Shown: positions 6,528 to 52,759, numbered from the stretch's first letter. The stretch: 64,000 nt of DNA from Candidatus Latescibacterota bacterium (GCA_965221775.1 CBDCSU010000005.1:352001-416000), one strand, 5' to 3'. Translations and numbers: made by a program. Notes: generated from the letters alone by a model not told the origin.

Positions 6528-6540
6528 TGGAAGGCAGATC

Positions 6541-9351
6541 TCATTCGTCGAATCCCAGGATGACCCGCAGGAAGGCGGAGGCGATGTCGAGATCCTCCCT
6601 CTGCCGGGCGGAATCGCCGTACTCGCGCCGGGTCCACTTCACCCCCAGGTTGGTGGCGATGTTGTACCCGAAGTAGGGAGACCGGTTCGTCAGCTGCACC
6701 ACCCGAACGACCTCCTCGTAGCTGTCGCGGCCATCGGCCAGGTCCTCCTTGCGCAGGGGCAGGCCCGGCAGCCCCTGGGTGCCGAGCCACAGGTGGGTGC
6801 GCGGCGTGATGTGGTAGGTGGCCTTGAGGATCGGTATGAAGGTCCACTCGTTGGCCAGGTCCACGATCAGGCTCTCCCGGGTCCTTCGCAGCACCAGTCC
6901 CTTGGCCTGGGCGATCACCTGCCAGCGGTCCGCCAGCTCCCTCACGTACTCGGCCCGGGCCACCATCGTCAGCCGGGTGATCGTGTCGGCCGCCTGGTCA
7001 CTGCCGTCGGAGAGGGTTGCCTCCTGCTGCTCGTTGACCGCATAGCGCAGGTTGCCGCCGAGACGCAGACCGCGGCCGGCCTTGAGGTCGGCCTCGACGT
7101 AGTGCTGCCGGTCCAGGCTGTCGCGGTACTCCAGCTGATCCGTCAGCCGGGTGGGGGCGTAGGTGGGCCAGAACTCGTGCCCGCCCAGAACCTCACCGTA
7201 GGTGATGTAGTTGTCCATGATGTCGTCATGGACCCGCTGGAGGCGGGTTTCGGCCCAGGCCGAGCCCCACCGGGGGCTGTGGCGGCGAAGGGTCACCACG
7301 CCGTAGGTGCTCTCGTTGCGGGCGCCGCTGGCGATCCCCGCCGCCCGCAGCCGGCCCGCCGTGAGGCGAAACCCGCCGGGCAGATGGAGCGACCCGAAGA
7401 GGTGGTGCCCGCTCTGGTCCAGCTCGTAGGGGTAGTCCGAGTCCAGGTCGTCCTCGCGGTGGTCCGGGATGCCGTTGTTGTTGGCGTCCCGTCCATAGGC
7501 ATACTCCTCCGGCTCCACGTCGTACAGCAGGAACGCCTCCAGGTAGTCGGGCACCTGGTTGCCGTTGCGGTTGGTGTCTGGAATCCGGTCGTTGTCCCGG
7601 TCGTTGCCCGGGAACACCCCGTCCGGGTCGTAGGGGATCGTCGTGTAGTGAGGACTCGGCCGGTGGCCGTGGCCGATGTCGGGGTAGCGGTCGTCGTCGT
7701 CGTTGTCCTGCACGAAGCCGCTGTCGTACTCCTCGGCGATGGAGAACAGCTCCCCCCCCACCTCCACCCGGCCCCGGCGCCACCGTCCGTTCACGTAGTA
7801 CGCGCCGGCGTCGGTGCTGCTGCGCGCCCCGTTCCAGCGGCGGATGCCCCTCACCTCCCGGTCCTCGCGGTACCCCGGCCGGCCGTCGGGAAACTCCCGG
7901 AACTCCACGTTGCGGGCGTATTCCCAGCGCACCTCGGCGTCGCCCCACTCCCAGGCCCCGTTGAGACCCCACAGGGCCCGGCCCGTCCACTCCCCCAGGT
8001 CCAGGCGCACCCACTCCAGGTTCGACATGTCCTGCACGTTGCCCGGGGAGCGGAGGACGGCGGTCACCCCCGGCGTCTCCTTCCTCTCGAGGTATCCGCT
8101 CGTGGAGACCAGGGTATTGCCGCCCACGCGGTAGTGGAACTCGTAGTTCTCCACCGCCGGGGCCGAGACGTAGAGGGGCAGCACCTCGACGCGGTAGTCG
8201 TTGCCCACCAGCGCCTCCACCTGCACCTGGCGGATGAACGGCTCCTGGCTCACGTCGAAGAAGGCGATGATCTGCTCGTGGCCGTCGGCCCGCAGTCCGG
8301 GCACGTCCGGCAGGGCCTCCACCCAGCGCAGCAGCTCCTCCAGGTTGACCTTGTCCGACACGTCCTCCCCCCGCAGGTGGTCGCGCAGGTAGAGGACGTC
8401 CGCGAAGCGCGTGCCCTGATCCAGGTAGACCGCCCGCCGGAACTGGCCGGAGAGTCTGTTCGTCGTGCCCACCGCGGTGGGATTCTGGCCGTTGATGCGA
8501 GCCAGGAAGGGCCGCAGGTCCGGGCGCTCCTCGCCGTTGACCTTCAGACGCACCTCCGCGACCACGGCGCCGGCCTGCAGGTCCTCCGGCGAATCGTCGG
8601 AGAGCCGCACCAGGTAGCCCACCGGCAGCACCTGCTCGGCCTGCAGCCCGCCGCGCAGCACGAAGCTCTCCTGCTCGGCGTCGAAGATGTGGAAGTTCAC
8701 CCCCGTCGCCCCCAGGGTCAGCGCCCCCAGCTCGACATCGCCGTGGGCCCCCAGAAGCATCGCCGAACTCCGGATCTCCTCGGCGGAGTCCCAGTGGTGC
8801 CAGGTGGGACCGCCGCCGTAGCGGCTGTCGGCGAAAGGCCCGGTGTACCGCTGCCCGATGACGGCCACACGGGTATTGCCCACCTGGCTGTCGAGGCGGA
8901 TGCCGTCGTAGCCCGGCAGGGCCAGGGTCAGCGGCGTGAACAGCGTGCGGATCTCCTCCCCGTAGATCAGGCTCGCCGCCCACCGCGCGTGCGACTCCCG
9001 CGCCACCAGGTTGCGCTCGAAACGCCGGAAACGGGGGAGGGTGCGGAAGGACTTGGGCAAGGCCGACGTCGTCGACGACCGGGTCTCCCGCCACTCGTAC
9101 ACGTCGTAGCCCTGAATCAGGAAGTTGCCCAGGGGGCCGTAGTAGTTGCGCCGCGAGAACCGGGTGAACTCCGGCAGCGTGTAGTCCTCGAAACCGTAGT
9201 TGAGGTAGGAGGGATCCGACCGGTAGAGGAAGGAACGGCCGGAGACGTCCTGGGCGAACCCCAGATGCGGGTCCTCCGCCCCCACCCGACCCGGCCCCCC
9301 CCAGGCGGGCATGAAGACCAGAGTCCAGACCGCGAGCCTCATCCGTCTCAT
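6541..9351 (-). CDS. Uncharacterised large secreted, probable outer-membrane beta-barrel protein, paralog A
   Basis: Signal peptide, amphipathic beta-strand-like C-terminal half ending AFLRVILGFDE, central Asp-rich block DNDDDDRYPD...DGVFPGNDRDNDRIPD...DANNNGIPD. ATGA overlap with the paralog B stop. Confidence 0.8.
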   Translation of the reverse strand: MRRMRLAVWTLVFMPAWGGPGRVGAEDPHLGFAQDVSGRSFLYRSDPSYLNYGFEDYTLPEFTRFSRRNYYGPLGNFLIQGYDVYEWRETRSSTTSALPKSFRTLPRFRRFERNLVARESHARWAASLIYGEEIRTLFTPLTLALPGYDGIRLDSQVGNTRVAVIGQRYTGPFADSRYGGGPTWHHWDSAEEIRSSAMLLGAHGDVELGALTLGATGVNFHIFDAEQESFVLRGGLQAEQVLPVGYLVRLSDDSPEDLQAGAVVAEVRLKVNGEERPDLRPFLARINGQNPTAVGTTNRLSGQFRRAVYLDQGTRFADVLYLRDHLRGEDVSDKVNLEELLRWVEALPDVPGLRADGHEQIIAFFDVSQEPFIRQVQVEALVGNDYRVEVLPLYVSAPAVENYEFHYRVGGNTLVSTSGYLERKETPGVTAVLRSPGNVQDMSNLEWVRLDLGEWTGRALWGLNGAWEWGDAEVRWEYARNVEFREFPDGRPGYREDREVRGIRRWNGARSSTDAGAYYVNGRWRRGRVEVGGELFSIAEEYDSGFVQDNDDDDRYPDIGHGHRPSPHYTTIPYDPDGVFPGNDRDNDRIPDTNRNGNQVPDYLEAFLLYDVEPEEYAYGRDANNNGIPDHREDDLDSDYPYELDQSGHHLFGSLHLPGGFRLTAGRLRAAGIASGARNESTYGVVTLRRHSPRWGSAWAETRLQRVHDDIMDNYITYGEVLGGHEFWPTYAPTRLTDQLEYRDSLDRQHYVEADLKAGRGLRLGGNLRYAVNEQQEATLSDGSDQAADTITRLTMVARAEYVRELADRWQVIAQAKGLVLRRTRESLIVDLANEWTFIPILKATYHITPRTHLWLGTQGLPGLPLRKEDLADGRDSYEEVVRVVQLTNRSPYFGYNIATNLGVKWTRREYGDSARQREDLDIASAFLRVILGFDE
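6548..9252 (-). repeat. Left arm of a ~2.7-kb inverted repeat (mature coding region of paralog A)
   Basis: The reverse complement matches 19913..22620. In the blocks I aligned by hand, 9111-9250 differs from the right arm at two synonymous sites and 8581-8700 is identical. Confidence 0.95.
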
Positions 9352-12062
9352 CCCTGGAAGGGCTCCAGTCCCAGCAGCAGCCGGACGAACAGCAGCGAGC
9401 GCTCCACATCGAGCTGCTTCCGGCTCCTGTCCTCGAATCGAAGGGTCTTGGCGAGGTATCCGGCGTTCAGGGTCAGGTAGTAACCCTCGTACGTGGTGCG
9501 GTTGGTGACGGAGACGATGTAGTCCCTGCTGCCGTAGTCGACCTGGTCGTTGATCAGGTTCCTGTAGGTGCTGGACAGGAAGGGGAAACCCTGGGCCCCG
9601 GCGCTCAGACTGGTCTGGGGGGACAGGGCCACCGTGGCCACCACCATGGGGTAGAAGTAGCGCTCGGAGACGGGATGGACATGGATGTCACCGCCTCGCC
9701 TCCGGTAGGCCATGTACTTGGCCCTGGGCGTCACCGTCCACCGGTCCCTCTTCCAGGTGTAGCCGCTGCGCAGCACCCACGCCCACTCCTGGATCGTGTC
9801 GGCGGGCTGGAAGGCGGAGGCCCGCTGCCGATTGACCGTGTGCTTGAGCCGGCTGTTGACCTCCAGGTCCTTCACCCGGAGGAAGGTGGCGTCGAGGTGA
9901 GCCGTGTTGACGACGCTGTCCCTCATCAGCAGCGGGTCTTCGACCTGCGTCAGACCCTGGACGCTGGCCACCGAGGTGGGGTCGATCGGCAGTCCGTGGG
10001 GCGTGAAGAAGCCGAACTGGGGGGAATCGTCGGCGATGTCGTCATGGACCCGCTTGAAGAAGTCGGAGAAGTCGATCGAGGCATAGGGGAAGAGGGTGCG
10101 CCGGTAGTTCAGGCGCACGTAGTTGACGCGGTTCTTGCCCGGTCCCCAGATCTCGCGGACATGGAAGCGCCCCGCGCTCAGTTCCAGGGCCTCCACCGGC
10201 TCGACGGTGCCGAAGAGGTGATACCCCTTCCTGTCCGTCGGATAGGGGTAGTCCGGCCGGAAGTCGTCCTCGCGGTGATCGATCACCCCGTTGTTGTTCA
10301 TGTCGTCGCCGTAGTCGTACTCCAGGGGATCGACATGGTAGAGCAGGAAAGGCTCGTTGTAGTCGGGCTCGGCGTTGCCGTTCTCGTTCACGTCGGTCCG
10401 GCCGTCCTGGTCCCGGTCGAGTCCAGGGAAGACGCCGTCCCCATCGCCGAAGCTCTTGTTGAGGAAATGGAAGTCGGGCCACAGGTCCTTGTCGTCGTTG
10501 TCGTCCACCGTGTCGAGGATGACGGTGTCGTTGTACCTGTCCTGCCAGTTCGGAGCGACCTCTCCGATGAAGGGACTGCCGAGGTCATCGGAGTAGGTCC
10601 AGTACTCCCTGCTCTGCACGGAGAGGGAAGTGCCGTAGAGGGGGTCCATCCGGAAGTACTCGCCGGCCAGGCGAAACCACGCGAGCTGCTTCCTGGCGTG
10701 GACGAAGAAGGCATCCGCCGTCTCCCGGTGCCAGCGGCTGCGCCCGATCGTGCTCGGATACTGGAGGTAGTTGAAGCTGCGGGCGTACTCCCCGCGCACC
10801 TGGAATCCCTCCCGGTCCAGTTCCAGGCGCAGGCTGCCCGTGGTGCGGCCGCTCTGGCGGCCGTACTCGAAGGAGACGCGGCGCAGATTGCCCAGGTCGC
10901 CCACGTTTCCCTCCTGGGACGCCACGTCGCGGAAGAAGGTGGCCCGCACCACCCGGAGGTCCGGGTTGCTGGTGGTGGCCGCCGCCGCGGGCAGGAAGAC
11001 CTCGGAGAGGCTGATGCGGTAGTCGTTGGCCACCAGGGCGCTGAAGCGGACGGACTCGACCTCGTCGCGCATCTCCTGGGGGATCTTGAACCAGTAGATG
11101 AGATACTCGGTCCCGTTGGCCTCCAGGAAGCCCTGGGCGCCGGGGTCCTGAAGGGGCAGGTCCCCCTTCAGGAACTCGATGTAGGGAGGAATCGTGAAGC
11201 CCGGCCGGAAGGCCCTGTCCCCGTTCGGGAAGTGCGGATTCACCACGTCGGCGTCGTGGCGGGTCACGCTGACTTCCACGGCGTCGTTGAGGGGGCCGTC
11301 GACGCGAACGTCGTAGACCCGCGCGCCCCGGCCGTCGTCCTCCGAGCCGTCGCTGATCCTCACGGCCAGATAGGCGGGAGGATTCTTCAGCCGCGAAGGC
11401 AGCACGCCCTTGAGGCTGTTGTCCCCGAAGCCGACGAAGCTGTCGGTGCGCAGGAGGTTGGCGTAGGAGAGGCTCACTCGGAGGGCTCCCGCCCTGTGCG
11501 CGAGGTGACCGCCGAGGAGGTAGGTGGGCTCGTTCGTCAACATGTGGAACTCGTTGTCGTCGTCGTTGTAGATCGGCCAGTCGAACCGCGACGACACCGC
11601 GGTGGCCTGCGTGCTTCCGAGGTCCACGTCCCAGCGAATCCCGTTCAACTGGGCCAGGTCCAGGGTCAGGGGAGTGAACTTGGTGCGTATCCGGTTCCCC
11701 ACCATCAGCCGGCTGGCCCAGTCCTTGTGGGTATCGTGGGCCACCACGAGGTTGCCCACGAGGGCCCGGAACTGCGGGTCCTTGTTCAGCATGCTCCCGG
11801 GATCCCACTCCATGGGCCGCGTCTCCTGGCTGCGCCAGATCTCGGTGCCGTCGAGGAGGAAGTTGCCCAGCTCGTCGAAGACGGGGGCCCGGATCTGCGA
11901 CCACAGAGAGGCCGTGTACTCCCTGTGACCGGTGCGGGCGTAGTACTGCTCATAGTCGCGGACCGGCTCGTAGAGGAGCTGGCTCTCCCCGGGCCCCGAG
12001 GACAGTATCAGCCAGGCGGCCAGCGGAGCAGCGGAGAATCCAGGTATTCCACCCACCCTCAT
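9348..12062 (-). CDS. Uncharacterised large probable outer-membrane protein, paralog B
   Basis: Start placed at ATG 12062 (MRVGGIPGFSAAPLAAWLIL signal), 2 nt after the paralog C stop. Shares family motifs FTPLTL, NDYRI, GNV.D, DNDD.D..PD, DGVFPG.D.D.D, D.NNNG..D.REDD, RVHDDI, G.QG.P, N...Y.GY. Confidence 0.8.
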   Translation of the reverse strand: MRVGGIPGFSAAPLAAWLILSSGPGESQLLYEPVRDYEQYYARTGHREYTASLWSQIRAPVFDELGNFLLDGTEIWRSQETRPMEWDPGSMLNKDPQFRALVGNLVVAHDTHKDWASRLMVGNRIRTKFTPLTLDLAQLNGIRWDVDLGSTQATAVSSRFDWPIYNDDDNEFHMLTNEPTYLLGGHLAHRAGALRVSLSYANLLRTDSFVGFGDNSLKGVLPSRLKNPPAYLAVRISDGSEDDGRGARVYDVRVDGPLNDAVEVSVTRHDADVVNPHFPNGDRAFRPGFTIPPYIEFLKGDLPLQDPGAQGFLEANGTEYLIYWFKIPQEMRDEVESVRFSALVANDYRISLSEVFLPAAAATTSNPDLRVVRATFFRDVASQEGNVGDLGNLRRVSFEYGRQSGRTTGSLRLELDREGFQVRGEYARSFNYLQYPSTIGRSRWHRETADAFFVHARKQLAWFRLAGEYFRMDPLYGTSLSVQSREYWTYSDDLGSPFIGEVAPNWQDRYNDTVILDTVDDNDDKDLWPDFHFLNKSFGDGDGVFPGLDRDQDGRTDVNENGNAEPDYNEPFLLYHVDPLEYDYGDDMNNNGVIDHREDDFRPDYPYPTDRKGYHLFGTVEPVEALELSAGRFHVREIWGPGKNRVNYVRLNYRRTLFPYASIDFSDFFKRVHDDIADDSPQFGFFTPHGLPIDPTSVASVQGLTQVEDPLLMRDSVVNTAHLDATFLRVKDLEVNSRLKHTVNRQRASAFQPADTIQEWAWVLRSGYTWKRDRWTVTPRAKYMAYRRRGGDIHVHPVSERYFYPMVVATVALSPQTSLSAGAQGFPFLSSTYRNLINDQVDYGSRDYIVSVTNRTTYEGYYLTLNAGYLAKTLRFEDRSRKQLDVERSLLFVRLLLGLEPFQG

Positions 12063-12064
12063 GG

Positions 12065-14893
12065 CTACAGGATCCTCGCCTGGATGAAGAACTCGCTGAG
12101 CCGCTGGGTCCGCCGGCTCGGCAGGTTGACGAACTCCGAGCGGCTGGAGCGGAAGCCGAGATTCGTGCTCACGTCGTAGCCGGTGTAGTTGCTCAGGTTC
12201 TGGATGAGGACGATCCAGTGGCGCGCGTCGAAGTCCCTCGACGCCGCCTCGGCATCGCGGAACCGGTGGGCCCACGGCAGTCCCTGCACGCCCGCGCGGA
12301 GGGTTGTGTGCTCACTCAGGGCATAGTCGGCCCTGAGAATGGGGATGATCTCGTGGCTCTCCAGGGGCATGACGAGATCCTCGGGCGCCGACCGCCGCCG
12401 CAGGGCGAGCTTCACCATCGGGCTCAGGGTCAGCCCGCCCCTGACAAAGGCGTAGTCCGCTTTGCTCACGAGGCTCCAATCGAGGATGTCGTCTCCCAAC
12501 CCGGGCCGGCTGTCCCTGCGGTTGTTCCACTCGACCTTGGCTGCCTGGATGACGTTGAGCCCCTCGATGCCGGTGTAATGCCCCTTTGCGAAGAGGGTGT
12601 TCACGAGGCTGTTCTCCATCAGCATCAGATCGGGCCGCGGTCGAATGGCCACGTTGACCTGGGTCTGGGGCTCGATCACCGCCTCGTACAGTGGATTGGC
12701 TATGTCGTCGCGAACACGCTTGAGGCGCCAGCGGGCGATGAATCGGCCCGCTTCGCTCCCCTCCAACGTGTAGCCCAGCTCGCCGTAGGTCACCTCGTTC
12801 CGGCCCGCCGCCGCTCGCTGCCGAACCCCGTACCGCCCGAGACGCAGCGCTGCTTTCTCGAAGGGCTGGGCCGAGGCAAAGCCGTGGTAGCCCCGGCTGT
12901 CCAGGTCGTAGGGGAGGTCCGGCTTGTTGTCGTTCTCGCGCACGTCGACGACGCCGTTGTTGTTGAAGTCCTCCCCGTACACGAAGTCGTCCGGCTCGAC
13001 GTAGTACATGAGGAAGGGCTCGAGATAGTCCGGGAACTGGTTGCGGTTGACGTTGGTGTCCACCACCCCGTCCTCGTCCTGGTCCAGGCCCGGGAATACC
13101 CCGTGCCCTCCGCCCAGACCAAACTCGCCGGCCGCATCGGGCCGGATGGCGTCCACGTCGATTCCCGAGGCGTTGGCATAGGCGATGTAGACGGGGTCCA
13201 GAGGGTCCCAGTGCTCCACCTTGTCCGGCCACTCGTCCCCGTCGTCGTTGTCCTCCACCAAGTCCCACCCCAGGACGGCCTGCTGGCCTTCGGACCACAC
13301 GGGCAACGAGACCTGGTAGGTGGGAGGGACGTCGAAGAGCTCCAACCCCACGTCCGCGAGGGACCCCTCCTGCAGGAGACGCACGTAGTACGCGCTCGTG
13401 GCGCGGCTGTCCCGGCGGCCTGCGAAGGGGAAGCGGGCGTGCTGGACGTTGCTGATGTACTCCGCCTCGAGGTTGGCGCCGCCGATCTTCGCCTCCACCG
13501 TGCTGCCGAACTGGACGAGGCCCGTGGGGAAGGCGTAGTCGACGGTGACCCAGCCCATGTTCGACCCGTCCTGCACGTTGCCGGGCGCCCGCTTGACGTT
13601 GTGCCAGTCGCTCCAGAGCGAGGTGCCGCCACCGAAGAAGCCGTAGGCGGCGCCCACGTCGAGGCTGTAGTCTCCGGCCACCTGCACCCGGAACTGCAGG
13701 CTCTGGGGATCGCCGGGTATCTCGTAGCGCAGTACCAGCAGGTCCGTGCCGCCCACCTCAAGCGGAAAGGGCCCGTCGAGGGGGATGCCCTCCCTGGCGA
13801 AGAGTCCCGTGCGCTCGACGAAGATCCGGTCGGCATTGAAGATCCGGGGTGCCCACGCTCCGTCCCGGCGAATGTGGGGAACTTCACTCACCTCCACGAC
13901 TTGGGGGATCAGCTTCACCTCGGGCTCCGCGTCCACCCGCTGCCGGTCGACGTACAGCTCCACCGCGAACAGATCGACACCGTCTCCGTCCCCGGGCGAA
14001 TCGTCGCTGATGACCAGGTAGAAGGACGACGTGCCGGTCAGGCGCGAAGGGACGTCCCCCCGAAGGCTCGTGTTCCGCCGGGACGCATCCTGCAGGTGGA
14101 GGTTCACGTAGGAGGCCCCGAAGGTCAGGATGTCGCCGAACTGGCTGCTCCAGTGGCCTCCGAAGAGGTAGTGGGTGAAGTGTCGCGACCCCGTCAGCGG
14201 CCGGGGCACCCGGGAGGAGATCAGGGAGAAGCTGTTGCGGTGGGAGGACGCATCCCAGCGGAGCCCCTCGAGGCGGGACAGGTTCAGGGTCAGTGGAGTG
14301 AACCGGCCGTCCAGGAGGTCGCCGATCATGAACCGGGTGGACCAGCCGCCGAAGGCGTCGCGGAGGATCACCATGTTGCGGAACTGGCCCAGACCCCAAC
14401 CGGGAACCCTGCTGCTGCGCGCGGGGTCCAGGGTGCCGTACTCCTCGATCCGCAGGATCTCCACCCCGTCGACCAAGTAGGAGCCGAAGGGATCGTAGGT
14501 GGGGCGCTCCGGACGGAATCCGTAGTCCCGGTAGCTGAGGAAACTGTAGTTCTCGTAGCGCTCGTCCCAGAGGGGACGCAGCTCCCGGTTCAGGAAATCC
14601 TGCTGTCCCGACCAGTAGTCCTCGGGGGAGCGCTGTGCCAGGCAGGGTGCGGCCAGGCTGCCTGCCAGCAACCACACGGCAAGACCCGCCGCCCGGCGGC
14701 GCCGTGTCCGGCCAGCGGCGCCGGACGGGCCACCGGCGCGGCGGCCTCGGGCGATCGGGTGACCCGCATGATCCTCAAACCGATGGAAGGCGGGACGTTG
14801 CTCGACCGGGGGGCCGACCTCCAGTACAGGCGCGGCCCCTTCGGGCCCATCACCCGTCCCGTTCGTCCTCTCGGAGGCCTCGTCGGTTGCCAA
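12065..14893 (-). CDS. Uncharacterised large probable outer-membrane protein, paralog C
   Basis: Same family motifs (FTPLTL, SDDSP, GNVQD, VEDNDDGDEWPD, GVFPGLDQDEDG, DFNNNGVVDVREND, GVQGLP). The signal peptide (RRRRAAGLAVWLLAGSLAAPCLAQ) lies ~60 aa inside the TTG-started ORF, so the true start is uncertain. Confidence 0.8.
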   Translation of the reverse strand: MATDEASERTNGTGDGPEGAAPVLEVGPPVEQRPAFHRFEDHAGHPIARGRRAGGPSGAAGRTRRRRAAGLAVWLLAGSLAAPCLAQRSPEDYWSGQQDFLNRELRPLWDERYENYSFLSYRDYGFRPERPTYDPFGSYLVDGVEILRIEEYGTLDPARSSRVPGWGLGQFRNMVILRDAFGGWSTRFMIGDLLDGRFTPLTLNLSRLEGLRWDASSHRNSFSLISSRVPRPLTGSRHFTHYLFGGHWSSQFGDILTFGASYVNLHLQDASRRNTSLRGDVPSRLTGTSSFYLVISDDSPGDGDGVDLFAVELYVDRQRVDAEPEVKLIPQVVEVSEVPHIRRDGAWAPRIFNADRIFVERTGLFAREGIPLDGPFPLEVGGTDLLVLRYEIPGDPQSLQFRVQVAGDYSLDVGAAYGFFGGGTSLWSDWHNVKRAPGNVQDGSNMGWVTVDYAFPTGLVQFGSTVEAKIGGANLEAEYISNVQHARFPFAGRRDSRATSAYYVRLLQEGSLADVGLELFDVPPTYQVSLPVWSEGQQAVLGWDLVEDNDDGDEWPDKVEHWDPLDPVYIAYANASGIDVDAIRPDAAGEFGLGGGHGVFPGLDQDEDGVVDTNVNRNQFPDYLEPFLMYYVEPDDFVYGEDFNNNGVVDVRENDNKPDLPYDLDSRGYHGFASAQPFEKAALRLGRYGVRQRAAAGRNEVTYGELGYTLEGSEAGRFIARWRLKRVRDDIANPLYEAVIEPQTQVNVAIRPRPDLMLMENSLVNTLFAKGHYTGIEGLNVIQAAKVEWNNRRDSRPGLGDDILDWSLVSKADYAFVRGGLTLSPMVKLALRRRSAPEDLVMPLESHEIIPILRADYALSEHTTLRAGVQGLPWAHRFRDAEAASRDFDARHWIVLIQNLSNYTGYDVSTNLGFRSSRSEFVNLPSRRTQRLSEFFIQARIL

Positions 14894-14920
14894 GTCAAGC
14901 CAGACAGGAAGCGAAGCTTC

Positions 14921-16987
14921 TCAGTAAGCCACCCCTACGACGCCGGTGGCGGTTTCGGTCCCGGCGTCGAGCTCCACCTGGACGCGGTAGAGGTAGTTGC
15001 CCGGCGGCACCAGCCGGCCTTCGTCGTCCCTGCCGTCCCAGTATCCGGGGACGATACCCCGTGCCCCGCTGACGAGGCGCAGGTAGACGCCGGCCGCCAG
15101 GGGGGACGGCTTCAGATCGCGCACCAGAGCGCCCCGGAGGTCGAAGATGCGCAGTCCCAGGTCGCGGGGCGTGTCTACCTTGCTGAGAATGAACTCGATG
15201 ACGGTGTCATCGTTGATGTCGTCACCGTTGGGTGTGAACACGGAGGGATTGGCGCGGACGTTCGACAAGGCGTCCTCGGGAGAGGTCGTCGGGACCACCG
15301 CCCAGGAGAAGGGCTCGCCCGTGCTCTCGTCCATACCGAGGCTCTCGGCCACGTTGACGGGGTTGTCCGACCCGGGGCTGAAGAGAAAGACGCGGAACTC
15401 GTGGCTGTTCGCGTGGGAGCGGGCCCGAAAGGGTATCTGCAGTTGGTCGATGTCGCGCACCGGCTCGGAGAAGACGAGCTCAAGCGCATCCTGCGTGGAG
15501 ATCCAGCTCTCCAGGATCCCCTGGAGCTGACCGTCGTCGACCAGTCGGGCCTCGCTGGGGACGGCGACGCGGAGCCGCTCGATCCCCGAGTCTTCGGGGG
15601 AAAAGGCCAGGTCCAGGGTGCACACGAAGAGGGTGTCGGCACCCATGGACACGCGGTTGGGCGAGATCCTGGAATGGGCGCCGGAAACGGCGATCTCCTC
15701 GGTCGTGTAGTCCAGCTCCAGGCTGTGCAATGCCGGCGTGCGCCGCTGGTCCCTGGACTCCAGGGCGACCCGGTATTGGAGCCAGGCTCCCGGCTCCGAG
15801 GCGGGGAACCAGACCTCTCCACTCGACAGAGGGGTGCTCCACCCCCGCTTGGGATCCTCGAAGTCCGACGGGGAATTCCCCGTCCGGAACTGGACGAAGA
15901 GATCCGTGCGCTCGGGGATCTCGGCATCCCAGCGCACGCGGCCGAAATTCTTGGCCTGGTCGGGCGCGCCCAGCGAGAGAGGATCGGAGAGGTATGTGCC
16001 CTCGTCCGTGTACCCGTCTCCGTAGACCTCCACCTCGGCCACCTTGGGAGGGCTCACGGAGTTGATGTCGACGATCACGACTCGCACGTACCGGGTCCAC
16101 ACCGGCGTAAAGCGCACCTCGGTCCAGTCGAACTTCTCGATATCGTGGATGACGCCCACCTCGGTCCAGCGGACCCGGTCGTCGCTGACCTGCACCGAGT
16201 AGCCCCTCAACGAATTCTCCTCCAGCTGGCCGGGATTGCTCCCCCTGGTGATGACGCGGACGCTGCTGACGTTGCGCCTGACCTGCAGATCCACACTGGC
16301 CGAGTAGTTGAGAGCAGAGGTGGGCGGGTCCCAGGAGGTGTTCAGCTTGCCGTCCACGACTTCCACACGGTTGCTCGGCTTGTCGAGGGCCAGGTTCTGG
16401 CCGCGAATCTGACTGAGAACCAGGCTTCCCTGCCGGGCGCCCACGTCGATCCCCGACGGGAACCCGGAGACGATCTCGATCTCCGGGTCGAGCAGATCCT
16501 GGATCCGGGCGCGCTCGACCGCCCCCTGCTGCACGGCCTGCCACGCCGGATCGTCCTCCGGATCGGCCGTCGTCCACTCGAGACCCTGCTGCTCGAAGGA
16601 GGTCCAGTACCACCCCTGCACCACCTGGTTCGTGGTCGTCTCGATCCGGTACTCGTCGGTGACCACCGCGGCGATGAGGCCGTTGCCGGCGCCGGCGCCG
16701 CGGTTGACGACCTTCACGGCGATGTCATTCCCCGCATTCCCGTCCTGCACCTGGACGGCATAGACCTGCATCCGGGTACCGAGAGAGTCCCCGCCGAGGA
16801 GCACGCCGTTGAAGTAGACCTCGTAGCTGTCCACGGCGGCCACGTGGAGCCTGGCCTCGAGAGCGGCGTCGGAAACGAAGTTGGAACGGAAGTAGGTGGT
16901 GCTACGCCACGAACTCTGCTCCCAGGTCTGCGCGGTGACCGCAGCCGTGCAGCAGAGCACGATGAGGGAGGTGAAGCGGATAGACAT
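14921..16987 (-). CDS. Secreted F5/8 type C (discoidin/CBM32-like) domain protein with CHU_C (T9SS type B-like) / FlgD-Ig C-terminal domain
   Basis: Signal MSIRFTSLIVLCCTAAVTA. Discoidin pattern VDLQ...YSVQVSDD...WT...RYVRVVI...VAEVEVYG. C-terminus NPSVFTPNGDDIND...LRIFDLRGALVRDL...WDGRDDEGRLVPPGNYLYRV. Confidence 0.85.
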   Translation of the reverse strand: MSIRFTSLIVLCCTAAVTAQTWEQSSWRSTTYFRSNFVSDAALEARLHVAAVDSYEVYFNGVLLGGDSLGTRMQVYAVQVQDGNAGNDIAVKVVNRGAGAGNGLIAAVVTDEYRIETTTNQVVQGWYWTSFEQQGLEWTTADPEDDPAWQAVQQGAVERARIQDLLDPEIEIVSGFPSGIDVGARQGSLVLSQIRGQNLALDKPSNRVEVVDGKLNTSWDPPTSALNYSASVDLQVRRNVSSVRVITRGSNPGQLEENSLRGYSVQVSDDRVRWTEVGVIHDIEKFDWTEVRFTPVWTRYVRVVIVDINSVSPPKVAEVEVYGDGYTDEGTYLSDPLSLGAPDQAKNFGRVRWDAEIPERTDLFVQFRTGNSPSDFEDPKRGWSTPLSSGEVWFPASEPGAWLQYRVALESRDQRRTPALHSLELDYTTEEIAVSGAHSRISPNRVSMGADTLFVCTLDLAFSPEDSGIERLRVAVPSEARLVDDGQLQGILESWISTQDALELVFSEPVRDIDQLQIPFRARSHANSHEFRVFLFSPGSDNPVNVAESLGMDESTGEPFSWAVVPTTSPEDALSNVRANPSVFTPNGDDINDDTVIEFILSKVDTPRDLGLRIFDLRGALVRDLKPSPLAAGVYLRLVSGARGIVPGYWDGRDDEGRLVPPGNYLYRVQVELDAGTETATGVVGVAY

Positions 16988-17090
16988 CAGGCGGTTTCCC
17001 TTGCCGATAGAAACAAATGGGTGGCCGGCTTGCACCGGCCACCCATTCCGAGTCAGGCTGCTCCCAAACAGGGACGCCCGCTGACCGCTT

Positions 17091-18938
17091 TTACTTGAGC
17101 AGAGTCACGCGCTTGCTCTCGGCAAAACTCCCCGCGACCATCCGCAGGACATAGACCCCGCTGCCAACCTTGACGCCCTGGTAGTCCGTGCCGTCCCAGG
17201 TGACGTGGTAGGAGCCGGAGTCCAGCACTTGATCCACCAGCCTGGCCACTTCCTGGCCGGCCACGTTGTGCACGGTCAGTGTCACCGACTCGTTGATCTC
17301 GGGAACGGCGATGCGGACGGTCGTCTCGGGGTTGAAGGGGTTCGGGAACGCATCACCCAGTGCGAAAGCGCCGGGCGTGGCCCCACCTTCCAACTCCGTG
17401 ACGTCCGTGGTCAGGCCGTCGCCCACCTTCGCCCGTGCGATGTCCATGGGGAAGTGTGCCAGGTACGGACCGGCTCCCACGCCGATGTAGAGACCGTCGG
17501 CCTCGTTGTCGTTGTCCATCAGCATGGCGATGCCGCCGAGTGAGCCCGGGGGCATGTGGATTCCCACGTTGAGCTTGAACAGACCGAAGCCGTCGGGTCC
17601 CATGACCGTGGCCCATTCAGGCGCCTCCCAGCCGCCGATGAGGCTGATACCCCAGCGGGTGGCCAGTATGCTGATCGGAATGTTCGAGGGGATCCCCAGG
17701 GCCTCCCTCTCCTCCCTGGTGTAGAAGTCCAGGTAGAAGTCGCCGTTCTGGTTTTTCCAGACCAGGTTGAGGTCCTTGTCGGTCTTGGTCGGACCCGCTC
17801 CTTCCCGGCCGAGGTAACTGGTCCCGTAGTAGCCCGTGTCGTCGACGTCGAACCCCGCAACTGCCTTGAAGTTCCTCGGGGCGCCTTCGTCGTTGAAGAC
17901 CTGGGGGAAGTAGTCCAGGAAGGAGAGGACCTCCACCAGCTCTCCGGTGGCGCGGTCGAATATCTGCACCGCCGGACCCGGCGAACCGTAGGGCTCCACG
18001 TGGTCGGCGACGGTGGCGTAGAGCATGCCGTCGTCGGCCACCCAGGGATGGTGGCGGGCGTTGGCCACCATGGTGGTGATGCCGCGGACCTCCATGGCGA
18101 TGTAGCCGCCGTCGGCGTTCTCCCAGCTCTCGTCCAGCAGCGCCGTGCCCGCCTCGCGATCGATGATCGCCCGGTACAGGCCGCCCGGCGGGTTCTGGAA
18201 GCGGATGACGTAGGCCACGCCATCTTCCGACGGGTCCATCTGCAGATAGCCGACATCCTTCCAGTCATTCCCGGTCTCGCCCGGGACCGCGTTGACCCAC
18301 GGGATGGCGAAGGTCTCGAAGGCCTCGGGGTTGGCGAGCAGGTCGGTGCCCATCTCGCTCACCCTGATGTTCCAGACGCCCTCGATCTGCTGGGGGAACC
18401 AGATCTCCGGAGGACTCGCCTGGTCGTTGACCACCGAGTTCTGCCAAGGGGCCATGGTACCGCCCGCGTAGGTGGGCTTGGAGTCGACGTCGATGGCGAA
18501 CAGGTAGGTCCTGTAGGTGCCGGAGCCGACGGTCGCTCCCGTGTAATCCGTGCCGTCCCAGGTGATGGTGTTCGAGCCCGCGTCGAACCGGTCTCCGGCA
18601 CTGATGTAGACGAGGGTATCCAGACCGGCGGCGCGGATCAGGCTCTGTTCGATGCCTCCCACCCCGAAAGGCTCTCCGCCGTACTGGGGATTGGCATCGA
18701 GGGTGTACACGGCAAGCCAGACCATGGCCGAGGGAACGCCTTCGATGGTGAAGGGGATCTCGACCGCGGAACCGTCAAAGGTGTGGTTCACGTCCTGCGT
18801 CGAGAGCTTCAGCACCGTCGGCGCGCCGCCCTTCCAGTGGACGTCAAAGCCCTGCCAGTCGGGGTTGGACTGGCCGAAGTCGTTTGCCGCGGCCGTCCCG
18901 AGGAGTCCGGAACACAACAGCAGGATCGCCTTCTTCAT
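17091..18938 (-). CDS. Secreted protein with N-terminal FlgD-Ig domain and C-terminal T9SS type A-like / FlgD-Ig sorting domain
   Basis: AAGGAG RBS before ATG 18938 and signal MKKAILLLCSGLLGTAAA. C-terminus FALGDAFPNPFNPET...VHNVAGQEVARLV...WDGTD..G..VGSGVY...SKRVTLLK. A second WDGTDYTG..VGSGTY motif lies near the N-terminus. Confidence 0.9.
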   Translation of the reverse strand: MKKAILLLCSGLLGTAAANDFGQSNPDWQGFDVHWKGGAPTVLKLSTQDVNHTFDGSAVEIPFTIEGVPSAMVWLAVYTLDANPQYGGEPFGVGGIEQSLIRAAGLDTLVYISAGDRFDAGSNTITWDGTDYTGATVGSGTYRTYLFAIDVDSKPTYAGGTMAPWQNSVVNDQASPPEIWFPQQIEGVWNIRVSEMGTDLLANPEAFETFAIPWVNAVPGETGNDWKDVGYLQMDPSEDGVAYVIRFQNPPGGLYRAIIDREAGTALLDESWENADGGYIAMEVRGITTMVANARHHPWVADDGMLYATVADHVEPYGSPGPAVQIFDRATGELVEVLSFLDYFPQVFNDEGAPRNFKAVAGFDVDDTGYYGTSYLGREGAGPTKTDKDLNLVWKNQNGDFYLDFYTREEREALGIPSNIPISILATRWGISLIGGWEAPEWATVMGPDGFGLFKLNVGIHMPPGSLGGIAMLMDNDNEADGLYIGVGAGPYLAHFPMDIARAKVGDGLTTDVTELEGGATPGAFALGDAFPNPFNPETTVRIAVPEINESVTLTVHNVAGQEVARLVDQVLDSGSYHVTWDGTDYQGVKVGSGVYVLRMVAGSFAESKRVTLLK

Positions 18939-19094
18939 GGGATACTCCTTTTCTCCGCCCCGGACTCCCGTCTGGCCCGGTGTGGCGTGAGTTCGTGGCC
19001 TGCCTCGTCCTGCCGGGTCTCGGCAGGGCCCAAGAGGCCACAATGATCGGCAACTCAACCCCTTTGGGGGTTCGTCCATTCGTTCACTAGAAGA

Positions 19095-19123
19095 CTGTTA
19101 CTGCTCTTTCGGATGGAAGTCAA
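19095..19123 (-). promoter_or_regulatory. Candidate sigma70-type promoter for the leftward envelope operon
   Basis: Minus strand TTGACT-17 nt-TAACAG, preceded by a T-rich tract. The -10 match is weak. Confidence 0.4.
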
Positions 19124-19195
19124 GGAAAAAGCACGGCCCCCCACGCCCCTTCACCCCGGGGAGAGAGGAGCTATTGGTTGCCACTTACGGACCGC

Positions 19196-19672
19196 TTATG
19201 GGCCGCTCTGGGCCTCCTCCTCGCCGGCCTTGATCCTCACGGGGTCGGACCCGACCGAGATGAACCGTGTCCGCGGGTTGAGGGTGAGCTTGTCGTACGG
19301 CCCGTAGGGCCGCCAGCGCTTGGCCCCCGGAGTCGTCATCGTCTGGGGCTCGGCGTCGGGCCGTTCCGCGCCGATCATCCGAAGGGCCTCGTCCTCGTCG
19401 AAGGGGTCCATCTCTTCGAACCTGTAGCTGACATAGCTCGCCTCCCCCTCCTTAATTACCACGAAGACCCGGACACCCGTGCCAAGCACATCCTGCCACA
19501 GCAGATGCCCGAACCTCCCCTCCGAGGCCTGGACCCTCTGCCAGGGGTCTCCCCAGCGCTCGATGAGATCGGCCTCGCTCCTGCCGAGAACCTCATGAAC
19601 GTCCAGCGGCGGCGGCTCCCGGGAGCAGGACGCCCCGAGAACCAGGACTGAGATGACCAGCGCGGCTCTCAT
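19196..19672 (-). CDS. Small lipoprotein, possibly BamE/SmpA-like fold
   Basis: This is the 3' part of track ORF 19196..22126, with the real start at ATG 19672: MRAALVISVLVLGASC (lipobox-like), then VLGRSEADLIERWGDP, which resembles the G.(S/T)..(D/E)....(L/W)G.P motif of SmpA/BamE-type domains. Confidence 0.7.
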   Translation of the reverse strand: MRAALVISVLVLGASCSREPPPLDVHEVLGRSEADLIERWGDPWQRVQASEGRFGHLLWQDVLGTGVRVFVVIKEGEASYVSYRFEEMDPFDEDEALRMIGAERPDAEPQTMTTPGAKRWRPYGPYDKLTLNPRTRFISVGSDPVRIKAGEEEAQSGP

Positions 19673-19739
19673 TCGGATCCGATCCTTGTCTCGTGCTCGG
19701 TTGAAGCCCGGCACGTCCCGGCCCCGGGCAGGGAGCCGC

Positions 19740-19767
19740 AAAATAGAGGGGGGGCTTTCCCGGTCAA
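19740..19767 (-). promoter_or_regulatory. Candidate sigma70-type promoter for the small lipoprotein gene
   Basis: Minus strand TTGACC-16 nt-TATTTT, with a 7-bp homopolymer (19748-19754) in the spacer. Confidence 0.4.
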
Positions 19768-19819
19768 GCAGCCGAATCCGACGGCTTGCCGATCGGTGGT
19801 GATTTCCTCTCCGGCAGGG

Positions 19820-22624
19820 ATGGTGCGTATGCGGCCCTGGATCTGGATGCTCCTCCTCTTGCTGACGGGCGGGTTCCGGGCGCTGGCGTCCGAGCCGGTC
19901 CTGGGGCTCCCGCAGGACGTCTCCGGCCGCTCCTTCCTCTACCGGTCGGATCCCTCCTACCTCAACTACGGTTTCGAGGACTACACGCTGCCGGAGTTCA
20001 CCCGGTTCTCGCGGCGCAACTACTACGGCCCCCTGGGCAACTTCCTGATCCAGGGCTACGACGTGTACGAGTGGCGGGAGACCCGGGCCTCGACGGCCAC
20101 GGCCTGGCACAAGTCGCTGCGCACCCTCCCCCGCTTCGGGCGTTTCGAGCGCAACCTGGTGGCGCGGGAGTCGCACGCGCGGTGGGCGGCGAGCCTGATC
20201 TACGGGGAGGAGATCCGCACGCTGTTCACGCCGCTGACCCTGGCCCTGCCGGGCTACGACGGCATCCGCCTCGACAGCCAGGTGGGCAACACGCGGGTGG
20301 CCGTCATCGGACAGCGGTACGTGGGTCACTTCACCGCCGGCCAGTACGGCGAAGGGCCCGTCTGGACCAACTGGGACTTCACCGAGCACATGCGCAGCTC
20401 GGCGATGCTCCTCGGGGCCCACGGCGACGTCGAGCTGGGGGCGCTGACCCTGGGGGCGACGGGGGTGAACTTCCACATCTTCGACGCCGAGCAGGAGAGC
20501 TTCGTGCTGCGCGGCGGGCTGCAGGCCGAGCAGGTGCTGCCGGTGGGCTACCTGGTGCGGCTCTCCGACGATTCGCCGGAGGACCTGCAGGCCGGCGCCG
20601 TGGTCGCGGAGGTGCGTCTGAAGGTCAACGGCGAGGAGCGCCCGGACCTGCGGCCCTTCCTGGCCCGCATCAACGGCCAGAATCCCACCGCGGTGGGATC
20701 CACCAGCCGGCTCACGGGCCAGTTCCGGCGGGTGGCCTACCTGGACCGGGGCACGCGCTTCGCAGACGTGCTCTACCTGCGCGATCACCTGCGGGGGGAG
20801 GACGTGTCGGACAAGGTCAACCTGGAGGAGTTGCTGCGCTGGGTGGAGGCCCTGCCGGACGTGCCCGGGCTGCGGGCCGACGGCCACGAGCAGATCATCG
20901 CCTTCTTCGACGTGAGCCAGGAGCCGTTCATCCGCCAGGTGCAGGTGGAGGCGCTGGTGGGCAACGACTACCGCGTCGAGGTGCTGCCCCTCTACGTCTC
21001 GGCCCCGGCGGTGGAGAACTACGAGTTCCACTACCGCGTGGGCGGCAATTCCCTGGCGCCGGGGCAAGGCTACTTCGTGGAAAAGGAGACGCCGGGGGTG
21101 ACCGCCGCACGCCGCTCCCCGGGCAACGTTCAGGACATGTCGAACCTGGAGTGGGTGCGCCTGGATCTGGGGGAGTGGACGGGCCGGGCCCTGTGGGGTC
21201 TCAACGGGGCCTGGGAGTGGGGCGACGCCGAGGTGCGCTGGGAATACGCCCGCAGCGTGGAGTACCGCGAGTTTCCCGACGGCCGGCCGGGGTACCGCGA
21301 GGACCGGGAACTCAGGGGCATCCGCCGCTGGAACGGGGCGCGCAGCAGCACCGACGCCGGCGCGTACTACGTGAACGGACGGTGGCGCCGGGGCCGGGTG
21401 GAGGTGGGGGGGGAGCTGTTCTCCATCGCCGAGGAGTACGACAGCGGCTTCGTGCAGGACAACGACGACGACGACCGCTATCCCGACAGCGGCCCCGGAC
21501 ACCGCCCCATGAGTGCGGACACGGGCACCCCCTTCGACCCGGACGGGGTGTTCCCGGGCAACGACCGGGACAACGACCGGATTCCGGACACCAACCGCAA
21601 CGGCAACCGGGTGCCCGATTACCTGGAGGCGTTCCTGCTGTACGACGTGGAGCCGCTGGCCTATGCCTATGGACGGGACGCCAACAACAACGGCATCCCC
21701 GACCACCGCGAGGACGACCTGGACTCGGACTACCCCTACGAGGTGGACCAGCGCGGGCACCACGCCTTCGGGACGCTGCATCTGCCCGGCGGGTTTCGCC
21801 TCACGGCGGGCCGGCTGCGGGCGGCGGGGATCGCCAGCGGCGCCCGCAACGAGAGCACCTACGGCGTCGCCACCCTTCGCCGCCACAGTCACCGGTGGGG
21901 CTCGGTCCGGGCCGAGACCCGCCTCCGGCGGCTCCACGACGACATCGTCGACAACTACGTCGTCTTCGACGAGGTGTGGGGCCGCTATCCCAACCGGGAG
22001 CGGACCTATGCCCCCACCACGGTGCTGGATCTGCTTGAGTATCGCGACAGCCTGGACCGGCAGCACTACGTCGAAGCCGACCTCAGCCCCGCCCCCGGAC
22101 TGCGCCTCGGCGGCAACCTGCGCCATGCGCTCAACGAGCAGCGCGAGGCCACCCTGGCCGATGGCAGCGATCAGGCCGCCGACACGATCACCCGGCTGAC
22201 GATGGTGGCCCGGGCCGAGTATGTGTGGGAGCTGTCGGAGCGGTGGCGCGTGATCGCCCAGGCCAAGGCGCTGCGGCTGCGCCGGACTCGGGAGAGCCTG
22301 GCGGTGGACCTGGCCAACGAGTGGACTTTCGTGCCGATCCTGAAGACCTCATGTCACATCACGCCGCGCACCCACCTGTGGCTCGGCACCCAGGGGCTGC
22401 CGGGCCTGCCCCTGCGCAAGGAGGATCTGGCCGACGGCCGCGACAGCTACGAGGAGGTCGTTCGGGTGGTGCAGCTGACGAACTGGTCTCCCTACTTCGG
22501 GTACGAAATCGCCACCAACCTGGGGGTGAAGTGGAGCCGGCGCCAATACGGAGATCCCGCACGGGAGAGGGACGATCTCGACATCACCTCCGCCTTCCTG
22601 CGCGTCCTCCTGGGATTCGAATAG
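19820..22624 (+). CDS. Uncharacterised large probable outer-membrane protein, paralog D (near-identical inverted copy of paralog A)
   Basis: Signal MVRMRPWIWMLLLLLTGGFRALA (ATG 19820 or 19829). From QDVSGRS onward it is colinear and mostly identical to 6541..9351, ending AFLRVLLGFE. Confidence 0.85.
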   Translation: MVRMRPWIWMLLLLLTGGFRALASEPVLGLPQDVSGRSFLYRSDPSYLNYGFEDYTLPEFTRFSRRNYYGPLGNFLIQGYDVYEWRETRASTATAWHKSLRTLPRFGRFERNLVARESHARWAASLIYGEEIRTLFTPLTLALPGYDGIRLDSQVGNTRVAVIGQRYVGHFTAGQYGEGPVWTNWDFTEHMRSSAMLLGAHGDVELGALTLGATGVNFHIFDAEQESFVLRGGLQAEQVLPVGYLVRLSDDSPEDLQAGAVVAEVRLKVNGEERPDLRPFLARINGQNPTAVGSTSRLTGQFRRVAYLDRGTRFADVLYLRDHLRGEDVSDKVNLEELLRWVEALPDVPGLRADGHEQIIAFFDVSQEPFIRQVQVEALVGNDYRVEVLPLYVSAPAVENYEFHYRVGGNSLAPGQGYFVEKETPGVTAARRSPGNVQDMSNLEWVRLDLGEWTGRALWGLNGAWEWGDAEVRWEYARSVEYREFPDGRPGYREDRELRGIRRWNGARSSTDAGAYYVNGRWRRGRVEVGGELFSIAEEYDSGFVQDNDDDDRYPDSGPGHRPMSADTGTPFDPDGVFPGNDRDNDRIPDTNRNGNRVPDYLEAFLLYDVEPLAYAYGRDANNNGIPDHREDDLDSDYPYEVDQRGHHAFGTLHLPGGFRLTAGRLRAAGIASGARNESTYGVATLRRHSHRWGSVRAETRLRRLHDDIVDNYVVFDEVWGRYPNRERTYAPTTVLDLLEYRDSLDRQHYVEADLSPAPGLRLGGNLRHALNEQREATLADGSDQAADTITRLTMVARAEYVWELSERWRVIAQAKALRLRRTRESLAVDLANEWTFVPILKTSCHITPRTHLWLGTQGLPGLPLRKEDLADGRDSYEEVVRVVQLTNWSPYFGYEIATNLGVKWSRRQYGDPARERDDLDITSAFLRVLLGFE
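19913..22620 (+). repeat. Right arm of a ~2.7-kb inverted repeat (mature coding region of paralog D)
   Basis: See the left arm. The shadow ORF translations in the track are also identical over long stretches, which indicates identity at all three codon positions. Confidence 0.95.
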
Positions 22625-36494: not shown

Positions 36495-36971
36495 GGCTCT
36501 GAAGGAGGGGCGAGGCGACCACGTCCTGCAGGCGCCCGGGTGGTCGGAGGGGCCTGAGAAACCCCTGGGGTACTGCCGGCGGGGGTGGCGATCGAACATG
36601 GGGGGCTCCCTGTTCGGGGATGGTGGATCACCCGCCCGTGGGGAGACGTGCGCCGCGCATTCTACGGCAATCCCCCGGCATCCACAACTACCGGAGGGGC
36701 CGGGACTTCCACCCCCCCTGCGCCAGGAGCGCCGGAATCCCGGCAGGATCCCCGCTCGAGGCGATTCCCGTCGGCCCTGCCGACGACAGTGACGAGGAAG
36801 GGCCCGGATGCGGGCGGACCAACGCCCGTGACGGGTACGTGTCTTGAGGTTTCCGAGATTCCTGGGAACGGCCCCGCCGCCCGGGGCACCGCCGAACGAC
36901 GGGCACGGAGCCCCGCGGCATCCCTCGGTCCGCGCGGCTCGCCGCTCTGGGACTCGAGCGGCTTCCCGGCG

Positions 36972-48560: not shown

Positions 48561-48685
48561 ACGGGCGAGGCCTGCGGTCCGCAATCGGCGGAAGGTTGGA
48601 AGTCCAAGCCCATCAGTCAGTTACGATCGCTCGGCAGAAGCCCGCCGCCTTGCTCCGCAGCCGTCTCCGGGGTAACTTGGCCCCC

Positions 48686-50939: not shown

Positions 50940-51057
50940 GGCCGCCGTCAGGGCCGCGAGCCGGGAGAGGCCGCGCGCTCCCGCCGAAGAAGGGTGCCGC
51001 CCGAAGACCTGCCCGCTCCCGATGGCAGAGTTGGCCGGCCGTCGAAGGTCCCGGACC

Positions 51058-52700: not shown

Positions 52701-52718
52701 TCGTCCCCGCGAAGCTGA

Positions 52719-52749
52719 TTGACGGAGGTGCAGGGCCAATATATATAGT
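52719..52749 (+). promoter_or_regulatory. Sigma70-type promoter for coxGSLM
   Basis: TTGACG at 52719, then TATATA (17-nt spacer) or TATAGT (19-nt spacer), in the short AT-rich divergent gap. Confidence 0.6.
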
Positions 52750-52759
52750 CCGCCCTCCC

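Follow-up and report, generated by a model that had tools for sequence, protein, structure and literature searches.

How can two genes of one bacterial genome be identical over long blocks, silent positions included, and differ sharply in a few short segments? The question is raised by genes A and D, which lie in inverted orientation in a 64,000-nucleotide (nt) stretch, here called the window, from a Candidatus Latescibacterota bacterium (GCA_965221775.1, CBDCSU010000005.1:352001-416000). The window has a G+C content of 70% and belongs to a 1.5-Mb contig of a six-contig, 5.36-Mb assembly, designated G000 below. A first-pass annotation had described the pair as an identical scaffold interrupted by about six hypervariable patches, and had proposed an old duplication homogenised by gene conversion except in these patches, possibly an antigenic-variation cassette. 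The explanation that we favour, with good confidence, is that A and D are ancient duplicates subject to repeated conversion, which six dimorphic segments escape. The two genes, and the repeat that they form, are as follows.

6541-9351, minus strand: gene A, an open reading frame (ORF) with a translation of 936 amino acids and a signal peptide
19796-22624, plus strand: gene D, 942 amino acids when counted from the GTG at 19796
6548-9288, minus strand: left arm of the inverted repeat, which covers only the mature-protein part of A
19877-22620, plus strand: right arm of the inverted repeat, which covers only the mature-protein part of D

Both are full-length genes with a signal-peptide-like segment at the N-terminus; D more likely starts at the ATG at 19820 (MVRMRPW...), 24 nt inside the listed ORF. 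The repeat is made of four collinear pairs of arms, namely 6548-7164 with 22004-22620 (89% identity), 7183-7646 with 21519-21982 (91%), 7658-8097 with 21068-21507 (95%) and 8109-9288 with 19877-21056 (93%). When A was compared by blastn with the whole genome, only A itself and D were found, the latter at 91.6% identity over 2727 nt. Four tracts are perfectly identical in the codon alignment, third codon positions included (D coordinates).

20139-20289, plus strand: identical A/D tract of 151 nt
20429-20664, plus strand: identical A/D tract of 236 nt, the longest in G000 (A counterpart, 8501-8736)
20870-21049, plus strand: identical A/D tract of 180 nt
21314-21480, plus strand: identical A/D tract of 167 nt

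Had the 232 differences between A and D been evenly distributed, the longest identical run would have averaged 66 nt, with a maximum of 146 nt (2000 simulations). The six patches have the following positions and numbers of A-D differences in G000 (D on the plus strand throughout).

D 20084-20146, A 9019-9081: patch 1, 12 differences in 63 nt, two types
D 20288-20401, A 8764-8877: patch 2, 30 differences in 114 nt, two types
D 20696-20767, A 8398-8469: patch 3, 14 differences in 72 nt, weakly differentiated
D 21047-21112, A 8053-8118: patch 4, 19 differences in 66 nt
D 21488-21535, A 7630-7677: patch 5, 18 differences in 48 nt
D 21944-22042, A 7126-7221: patch 6, 33 differences in 99 nt

The inverted 2.7-kb pair, its long identical blocks and all six patches were thus found where the first-pass annotation had placed them. 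Its remark that synonymous differences cluster with the amino acid changes also holds, and divergence along the gene is strongly non-uniform: A and D have a synonymous divergence (dS) of 0.50 within the patches, versus 0.057 in the non-patch columns 41-639 of the alignment, a ninefold ratio. Non-synonymous relative to synonymous divergence (dN/dS) is 0.5-1.07 in the patches versus 0.12-0.35 in the rest. Two statements had to be amended. The scaffold is nearly identical in the N-terminal two thirds, whereas from about column 640 on, in the C-terminal third, non-patch sequence too shows diffuse divergence (dS 0.18, dN 0.08); and the signal peptides, which had been called unrelated, are strongly diverged yet can be aligned. 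As a separate observation, the converted N-terminal blocks have a third-position G+C of 0.96, compared with 0.89 for the patches and 0.88-0.89 for the neighbouring paralogs B and C; the high value of the converted blocks could fit GC-biased gene conversion, or constraint.

To place the pair in time, 31 related genomes were searched for it. Three congeneric species, G007, G002 and G006, have it too, with the two copies again inverted; G004 gave one 2.6-kb fragment only, and the five other congeners distant family members only. In G007, G002 and G006 the locus of about 20 kb is collinear at about 90% nucleotide identity, with B, C and cargo genes between the arms, and the orientation of the middle segment does not differ among the four genomes. 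Because of this collinearity the A copies are positional orthologs of each other, as are the D copies, and the synteny of the two loci excludes independent duplications. The pair therefore predates the split of the four species.

For the definition of the patches only G000 had been used; patch and non-patch columns were then tested in the four genomes, columns 41-639 (1434 nt) serving as the main non-patch set. In this set A and D of the same genome are sisters in G000 (support 100/99), G006 (96/99) and G007 (77/97), and a tree uniting the four A copies is rejected (approximately unbiased (AU) test, p=2e-66). The within-genome dS between A and D, which is 0.128 in G007, 0.245 in G002 and 0.050 in G006, can be set beside an ortholog dS of 0.13-0.26, an average of 0.22 between A and D of different genomes and, for the neighbouring gene B and the discoidin cargo gene, 0.18-0.27. 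For G000 and G006 it amounts to about a quarter of the between-species value (about 0.2). A GENECONV-like permutation on 605 polymorphic sites, a check that the first-pass annotation had recommended, gave longest matching runs of 30, 29, 82 and 57 sites, with p<=0.0002 in each of the four genomes, and the longest conversion tracts occupy different columns in each (216-288, 129-177, 111-238 and 790-857). Since the non-patch columns group by genome, with low dS and genome-specific tracts, conversion has gone on independently after the species split. A and D are an old duplication with ongoing intragenomic gene conversion.

The patch columns group by locus and not by genome. On these columns the copies split into an A clade and a D clade (100/100), and a pairing of A with D inside one genome is rejected for each of the four; 42 of the 45 fixed differences between the A and D groups fall within the 71 codons of patches 4-6. 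When nine gene copies and nine database proteins, 18 close sequences in all, were typed, each patch showed two types, conserved across species, patch 3 having intermediates as well. The patches are dimorphic, not hypervariable as had been announced. Both copies carry the A type of patch 1 in G006 and the D type of patch 2 in G002, the latter within a 386-nt identical tract; patch 3 has its intermediate forms outside G000 and is almost uniform between the two copies of G006. Patches 4, 5 and 6 keep both types in the four genomes, with 16-20, 18-19 and 28-33 nt differences, respectively; the two types of patch 6 differ in length by one codon, and the amino acids of patch 5 are invariant within each type (12 A-type and 6 D-type sequences) except for the first residue. 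Counted as genome-by-patch cells, patches 4-6 are divergent in 12 out of 12, and patches 1-3 are homogenised in 3 out of 12 (3 out of 24 for all patches). Because both copies end up with the same type, these conversions were non-reciprocal, and one type was therefore lost from the genome.

Chimeric combinations of patches, which the first-pass annotation had suggested looking for in relatives, do occur. The A genes of G002 and P0007 have a D-type patch 2, and the D gene of G006 an A-type patch 1. Among the database proteins, P0008 has an A backbone with a D-type patch 4, and P0010 a D backbone with an A-type patch 5; the contigs of these two, 3.6 and 4.7 kb long, may have been chimerically assembled.

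In A the six patches correspond to residues 91-111, 159-196, 295-318, 412-433, 559-574 and 711-742. Their character in the protein is suggested by the alignment of the family. They lie in its most variable columns (entropy of 2.53 versus 2.07, a value reached by none of 5000 random placements) and in gap-rich ones (gap fraction of 0.19 versus 0.05, p=0.006), and outgroup copies have deletions or insertions of 10 and 18 residues exactly there. Because of this variability and of these indels, we infer that the patches are exposed loops.

The following scheme accounts for the above results. A and D are ancient duplicates of one member of a large Gemmatimonadota family of secreted, probably outer-membrane, proteins. 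Homologous recombination between the arms repeatedly copies stretches from A to D or from D to A, non-reciprocally; most of the mature coding sequence evolves in concert in each genome, recently converted tracts being identical at silent sites. Six short segments escape, their A and D types each predating the split of the four species, with both types retained at patches 4-6 in every genome examined and occasional overwriting at patches 1-3. If the patches are indeed exposed and indel-prone loops, the two copies may have come to differ in what they bind. Selection would in that case eliminate any conversion that wipes out a type at patches 4-6, aided by the local 30% mismatch, which would hinder recombination. 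That the patches are kept apart by selection and mismatch barrier together appears to us rather probable, somewhat less so than the history of duplication and conversion itself.

The alternative that survives best does without selection: heteroduplex rejection and the lack of an identical seed would stop the tracts at segments diverged by about 30%, and the patches would be neutral relics. Dense mismatch is known to hinder recombination, and the tracts at columns 116-166, 213-291, 360-419 and 508-563 end exactly at the edges of patches (columns 98-118, 166-203, 419-440 and 566-581). Besides, patches 1-3 have been overwritten in some genomes while both genes stayed intact, and the A-D dS of the patches (0.23-0.50) is only about twice the ortholog dS. 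The barrier is not absolute, however, for the 386-nt tract of G002 crossed patch 2, and a mechanical stop does not readily account for dimorphism of patches 4-6 in all 12 cells. Nor does it fit the substitutions in these three patches, where purifying selection within types (20 non-synonymous and 45 synonymous changes) is opposed to 35 non-synonymous and 7 synonymous fixed differences between types (Fisher p=1.2e-7), although this amino acid excess is inflated, the patches having been chosen by their amino acid differences, and the 'polymorphism' class is in fact divergence between four related species. On balance, a barrier acting alone is an unlikely explanation, if one to be taken seriously.

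Besides this inflated contrast, several results weigh against the combined reading of conversion and selection. In G002 the overall pairing of A with D fails (AU p=0.005), yet no other genome has a longer single tract. Outside the patches, the C-terminal part gives no rejection of orthology (p=0.30), and conversion there is rarer or confined to G006. Conversions through patches 1, 2 and 3 in G006 and G002 left both genes visibly undamaged, so that both types are not strictly required at these patches. Finally, variability and indels are the whole basis of the loop character of the patches.

A programmed surface variation, in which conversion or inversion of the arms would re-assort the loops (as in the pilin, VlsE and Msp2 systems, or in invertible shufflons), is the second alternative and corresponds to the cassette proposed by the first-pass annotation. 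It would explain the natural chimeric combinations (G002, P0007, G006, P0008 and P0010, the last two with the reservation made above as to their short contigs), and the inverted orientation would in principle allow exchange of the 5' parts by inversion. But the middle segment is in the same orientation in the four genomes, the 18 sequences offer two conserved types per patch, with intermediates only at patch 3, and the exchanges for which both partners are known removed a type from the genome instead of shuffling it. No recombinase or reverse-transcriptase domain was detected among the neighbours scanned. An archive of silent cassettes was looked for and rejected: G000 has no further copy of any patch sequence, and in the closed genomes G006 and G007 the patch-6 region matches A and D only. 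We therefore regard a programmed system as very unlikely, and the antigenic-variation part of the original proposal is not retained.

An artefact of assembly or polishing, where collapse, cross-polishing or strain mixture would create the identical blocks, deserved attention since the assembly is metagenome-derived, with an estimated contamination of 7.75%. The G004 fragment illustrates the risk. This contig of 2569 nt (G004:C353:1-2569) consists wholly of a D-like copy that has a TAG in frame and whose patch 2 is of the A type. The mixed pattern may come from the two arms having been collapsed or chimerically joined in assembly; the G004 assembly, 83% complete and in 400 contigs, yielded no A copy. 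Against an artefact, the same architecture, with identical tracts specific to each lineage, is found in four assemblies, including genomes of one and two contigs. Logan contigs of the best-matching sequencing run (X15) have no difference in the eight listed pieces, among them a D-only piece across patch 2 (20260-20458), and each of two runs, taken from different studies, has a contig that covers the unique middle in full and extends 83 nt into each arm; these contigs break inside the arms, which puts inversion isomers and patch haplotypes beyond their reach, and the listed joints, with 20-28 letters on the shorter side, were set aside as repeat noise. Word depth, a weak indicator, points the same way, being about twice as high in the shared blocks 7685-8034, 8116-8379 and 8468-8736 (23.8-27.5) as in unique sequence (10.5-11.6), with the same trend in a run of another study. 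An artefact is thus extremely improbable. Equally so is a recent duplication followed by local hypermutation or diversifying selection, for instance by a diversity-generating retroelement, which would accommodate the higher dN/dS of the patches but not a pair older than the four-species split, patch types common to several species or a ninefold excess of synonymous divergence; the retroelement target itself was discarded, as substitutions show no adenine bias (52 out of 232 start from A) and no reverse-transcriptase domain was present among the neighbours scanned.

Conversion with six escaping segments being the preferred explanation, the next question is what the two genes encode. Searches of Pfam and NCBIfam at E<=0.01, of PHROGs and of PDB gave no match for A, D, B or C. 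About 20 paralogs at 25-30% identity exist in G000. With a profile of the family, 94 of the 151 genomes sampled from the phylum proved to have members (63 out of 63 in the window's own taxonomic family, 0 out of 30 and 0 out of 19 in two others), and 1187 representative clusters were detected among 1.84 billion proteins; up to 96 first-look candidates were counted in one related genome. One homologue is labelled 'Gemmatimonadota bacterium' by NCBI, no relative was found in JGI metagenome contigs, and a search of one open-access library yielded no work on the family, on gene conversion in symbionts of sponges or on outer-membrane proteins linked to type IX secretion in Gemmatimonadota. The best conserved part is an acidic, Asp/Asn-rich stretch (residues ~546-645).

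The members are secreted, probably outer-membrane, proteins and may be large beta-barrels, a reading drawn from sub-threshold matches and open to several objections. SlpA_C (PF21620) was found in 13 of 52 members (best E 2e-07) and A itself has no match; two of the matches, checked singly, scored 30 and 23.7 bits, under the 35-bit cut-off. A single OMP_b-brl_3 match in the family is below threshold, and for the homologue P0039 the Atlas gave unnamed clusters and a lead (0.89) to DUF6029, a barrel hint which is also sub-threshold. Barrel proteins usually end in an aromatic residue; A does not.

The neighbourhood of A and D offers a further clue. A is the last of the tandem paralogs C, B and A in a long string of minus-strand genes; D is solitary and divergent from the head of this string. 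The arms are 10.5 kb apart and flank the part of the string that comprises B, C and two cargo genes.

9348-12275, minus strand: paralog B, an old family member in tandem with A
12065-14893, minus strand: paralog C, an old family member in tandem with A
14921-17035, minus strand: putative cargo of type IX secretion; Pfam domains F5/8 type C (discoidin) and, C-terminally, CHU_C
17091-19079, minus strand: putative type IX secretion cargo, with a FlgD_ig / type A sorting domain (TIGR04183, 27.2 bits for a cut-off of 23)
3213-6527, minus strand: tetratricopeptide repeat (TPR) protein with YbgF/BamD-like repeats, downstream of A in the same string
1990-3216, minus strand: DUF4159 protein, downstream of A in the same string

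In the direction of transcription the order is: type A sorting-domain protein, discoidin and CHU_C protein, C, B, A, TPR protein, DUF4159 protein. With B and C, A shares 27-30% identity. As listed, the ORFs of these two paralogs have 210 nt in common, and because of this overlap B probably starts at a later start codon than the listed one. The start of A and the stop of B overlap by 4 nt (9348-9351), which suggests translational coupling. Upstream of D, the intergenic region 19080-19795 (65% GC) includes an ORF, 19178-19651, that is probably non-coding given its third-position G+C of 0.68; a promoter scan gave one minus-strand consensus match and no terminator.

The same association recurs elsewhere in the genome. 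At the 10 other paralog loci of G000 (L016-L025), a family gene adjoins FlgD_ig/CHU_C sorting-domain genes, often with discoidin, and a SurA-like peptidyl-prolyl isomerase (PPIase) or TPR gene is present at all 10. Including 1990-19079 of the window, a cassette of one to three family genes, cargo and PPIase/TPR gene is thus found at 11 out of 11 loci. SprA and two PorU genes of G000 score above their cut-offs; a PorV-like protein reaches 147.9 bits, below its cut-off of 250. By analogy, the family might provide outer-membrane partners (anchors or assembly platforms) of the adjacent type IX cargo, a role that we propose tentatively and with less than even confidence. Gene neighbourhood is what it is deduced from, a point that counts against it; at the window locus the pairing is ambiguous, with two cargo genes and three or four putative barrels.

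The rest of the window holds a second pair of paralogs and other genes. Two DUF4838 proteins, 22630-24699 and 34473-36599, both on the minus strand, are 58% identical over 669 residues; the gene at 22630-24699 lies directly downstream of D and is convergent with it. A molybdenum hydroxylase cluster of the CoxL/xanthine-dehydrogenase type occupies 47487-56972, with the large subunit at 53540-56098, the flavin adenine dinucleotide (FAD) subunit at 56037-56972, and XdhC, MoxR-type AAA, VWA CoxE-like and MoaA-like genes. The minus-strand ORF 3-701, truncated by the window start, has an FGE-sulfatase domain; PorK/GldK of the type IX system share this fold, and the ORF could be either. Rfam gave no match within the window.

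As for the habitat, the 10-kb stretch 6000-15999 is found almost word for word in 20 listed runs from 7 studies. Among those listed, sponge metagenome is the label of fourteen and marine metagenome that of two, and six bear coded organism names; the organism is probably a widespread sponge associate. Minor variants occur in this material: gene C has an in-frame insertion of 21 nt close to its 5' end (window position 14784) in the contigs of three runs out of four (X19, X20 and X1, but not X15), and the TPR gene a deletion of 24 nt at its start (6516) in X20 only.

The interest of the locus is that A and D are an unusually clean natural record of conversion opposed to local divergence, with islands resolved to a few codons. 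Six segments of a large unannotated family are thereby marked as its likely specificity-determining parts, and in uncultured symbionts such islands show where function should be sought. A bolder view, which we consider rather improbable, would make the family a new class of outer-membrane partners of type IX cargo in Gemmatimonadota and related phyla, with A and D as a two-allele, six-site loop module re-assorted by conversion and possibly by inversion. If it were true, sponge symbionts would have a mosaic cell surface under pressure from phages or host recognition, and uniformity of the shared scaffold would be maintained to let both copies match the same partners.

How does the pair compare with known systems? 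A possible functional counterpart is the PorP/SprF-like barrels of Bacteroidota, which anchor adjacent cargo having a type B C-terminal domain, sometimes with the TPR-containing periplasmic protein PorE (PMC9143113). The likeness is that a cargo gene adjoins a family gene and a TPR/PPIase gene at 11 out of 11 loci, in a genome with type IX genes. The difference is that the A/D family, with proteins of about 940 amino acids, matches no Pfam or NCBIfam model; PorP/SprF, about one third of that size, are a working analogy and do not define a membership. In the silent-cassette type of antigenic variation (pilE/pilS, vlsE, msp2), segmental conversion changes surface-exposed segments, with an expression site and silent donors. 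A and D lack an archive of silent donors, have two types per segment and are both full-length genes with signal peptides.

Closer parallels come from duplicated genes at large. The inverted tufA and tufB genes are a classical example of concerted evolution. In prokaryotes, short-term concerted evolution is recognised by paralogs that are closer to each other than to their orthologs, also at synonymous sites, synteny excluding independent duplication (PMC6053082). A and D behave in the same way, with within-genome pairing (save for G002 overall), synteny and a tract-like synonymous similarity; they differ in that the process is partial, the islands keeping their orthology. Divergent islands in converted duplicates are also reported for the GOT1 paralogs of Tigriopus californicus, where they were read as selection for a new function and where novel combinations arose (PMC3728101). 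GOT1 is a eukaryotic metabolic enzyme, whereas A and D encode bacterial secreted proteins.

The closest described case is that of the pairs homA/homB and babA/babB in Helicobacter pylori, paralogs with partial concerted evolution and conserved variants. These outer-membrane paralogs are about 90% identical and occupy separate loci; one segment evolves in concert by intragenomic conversion and another exists as a few conserved allelic variants, which occasionally move between genes (PMC2795765). Compared with this account, A and D have six short dimorphic islands and not one middle allelic segment. They are inverted and flank one gene string, and they were compared between species of an uncultured sponge-associated genus instead of strains of a pathogen. 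The families are unrelated, A and D having no match to the Hop/Hom family, and A and D are not known to have a role in disease or host adhesion. To these systems A and D add no new principle; what they bring is a new family and phylum, six small islands and a resolution across species.

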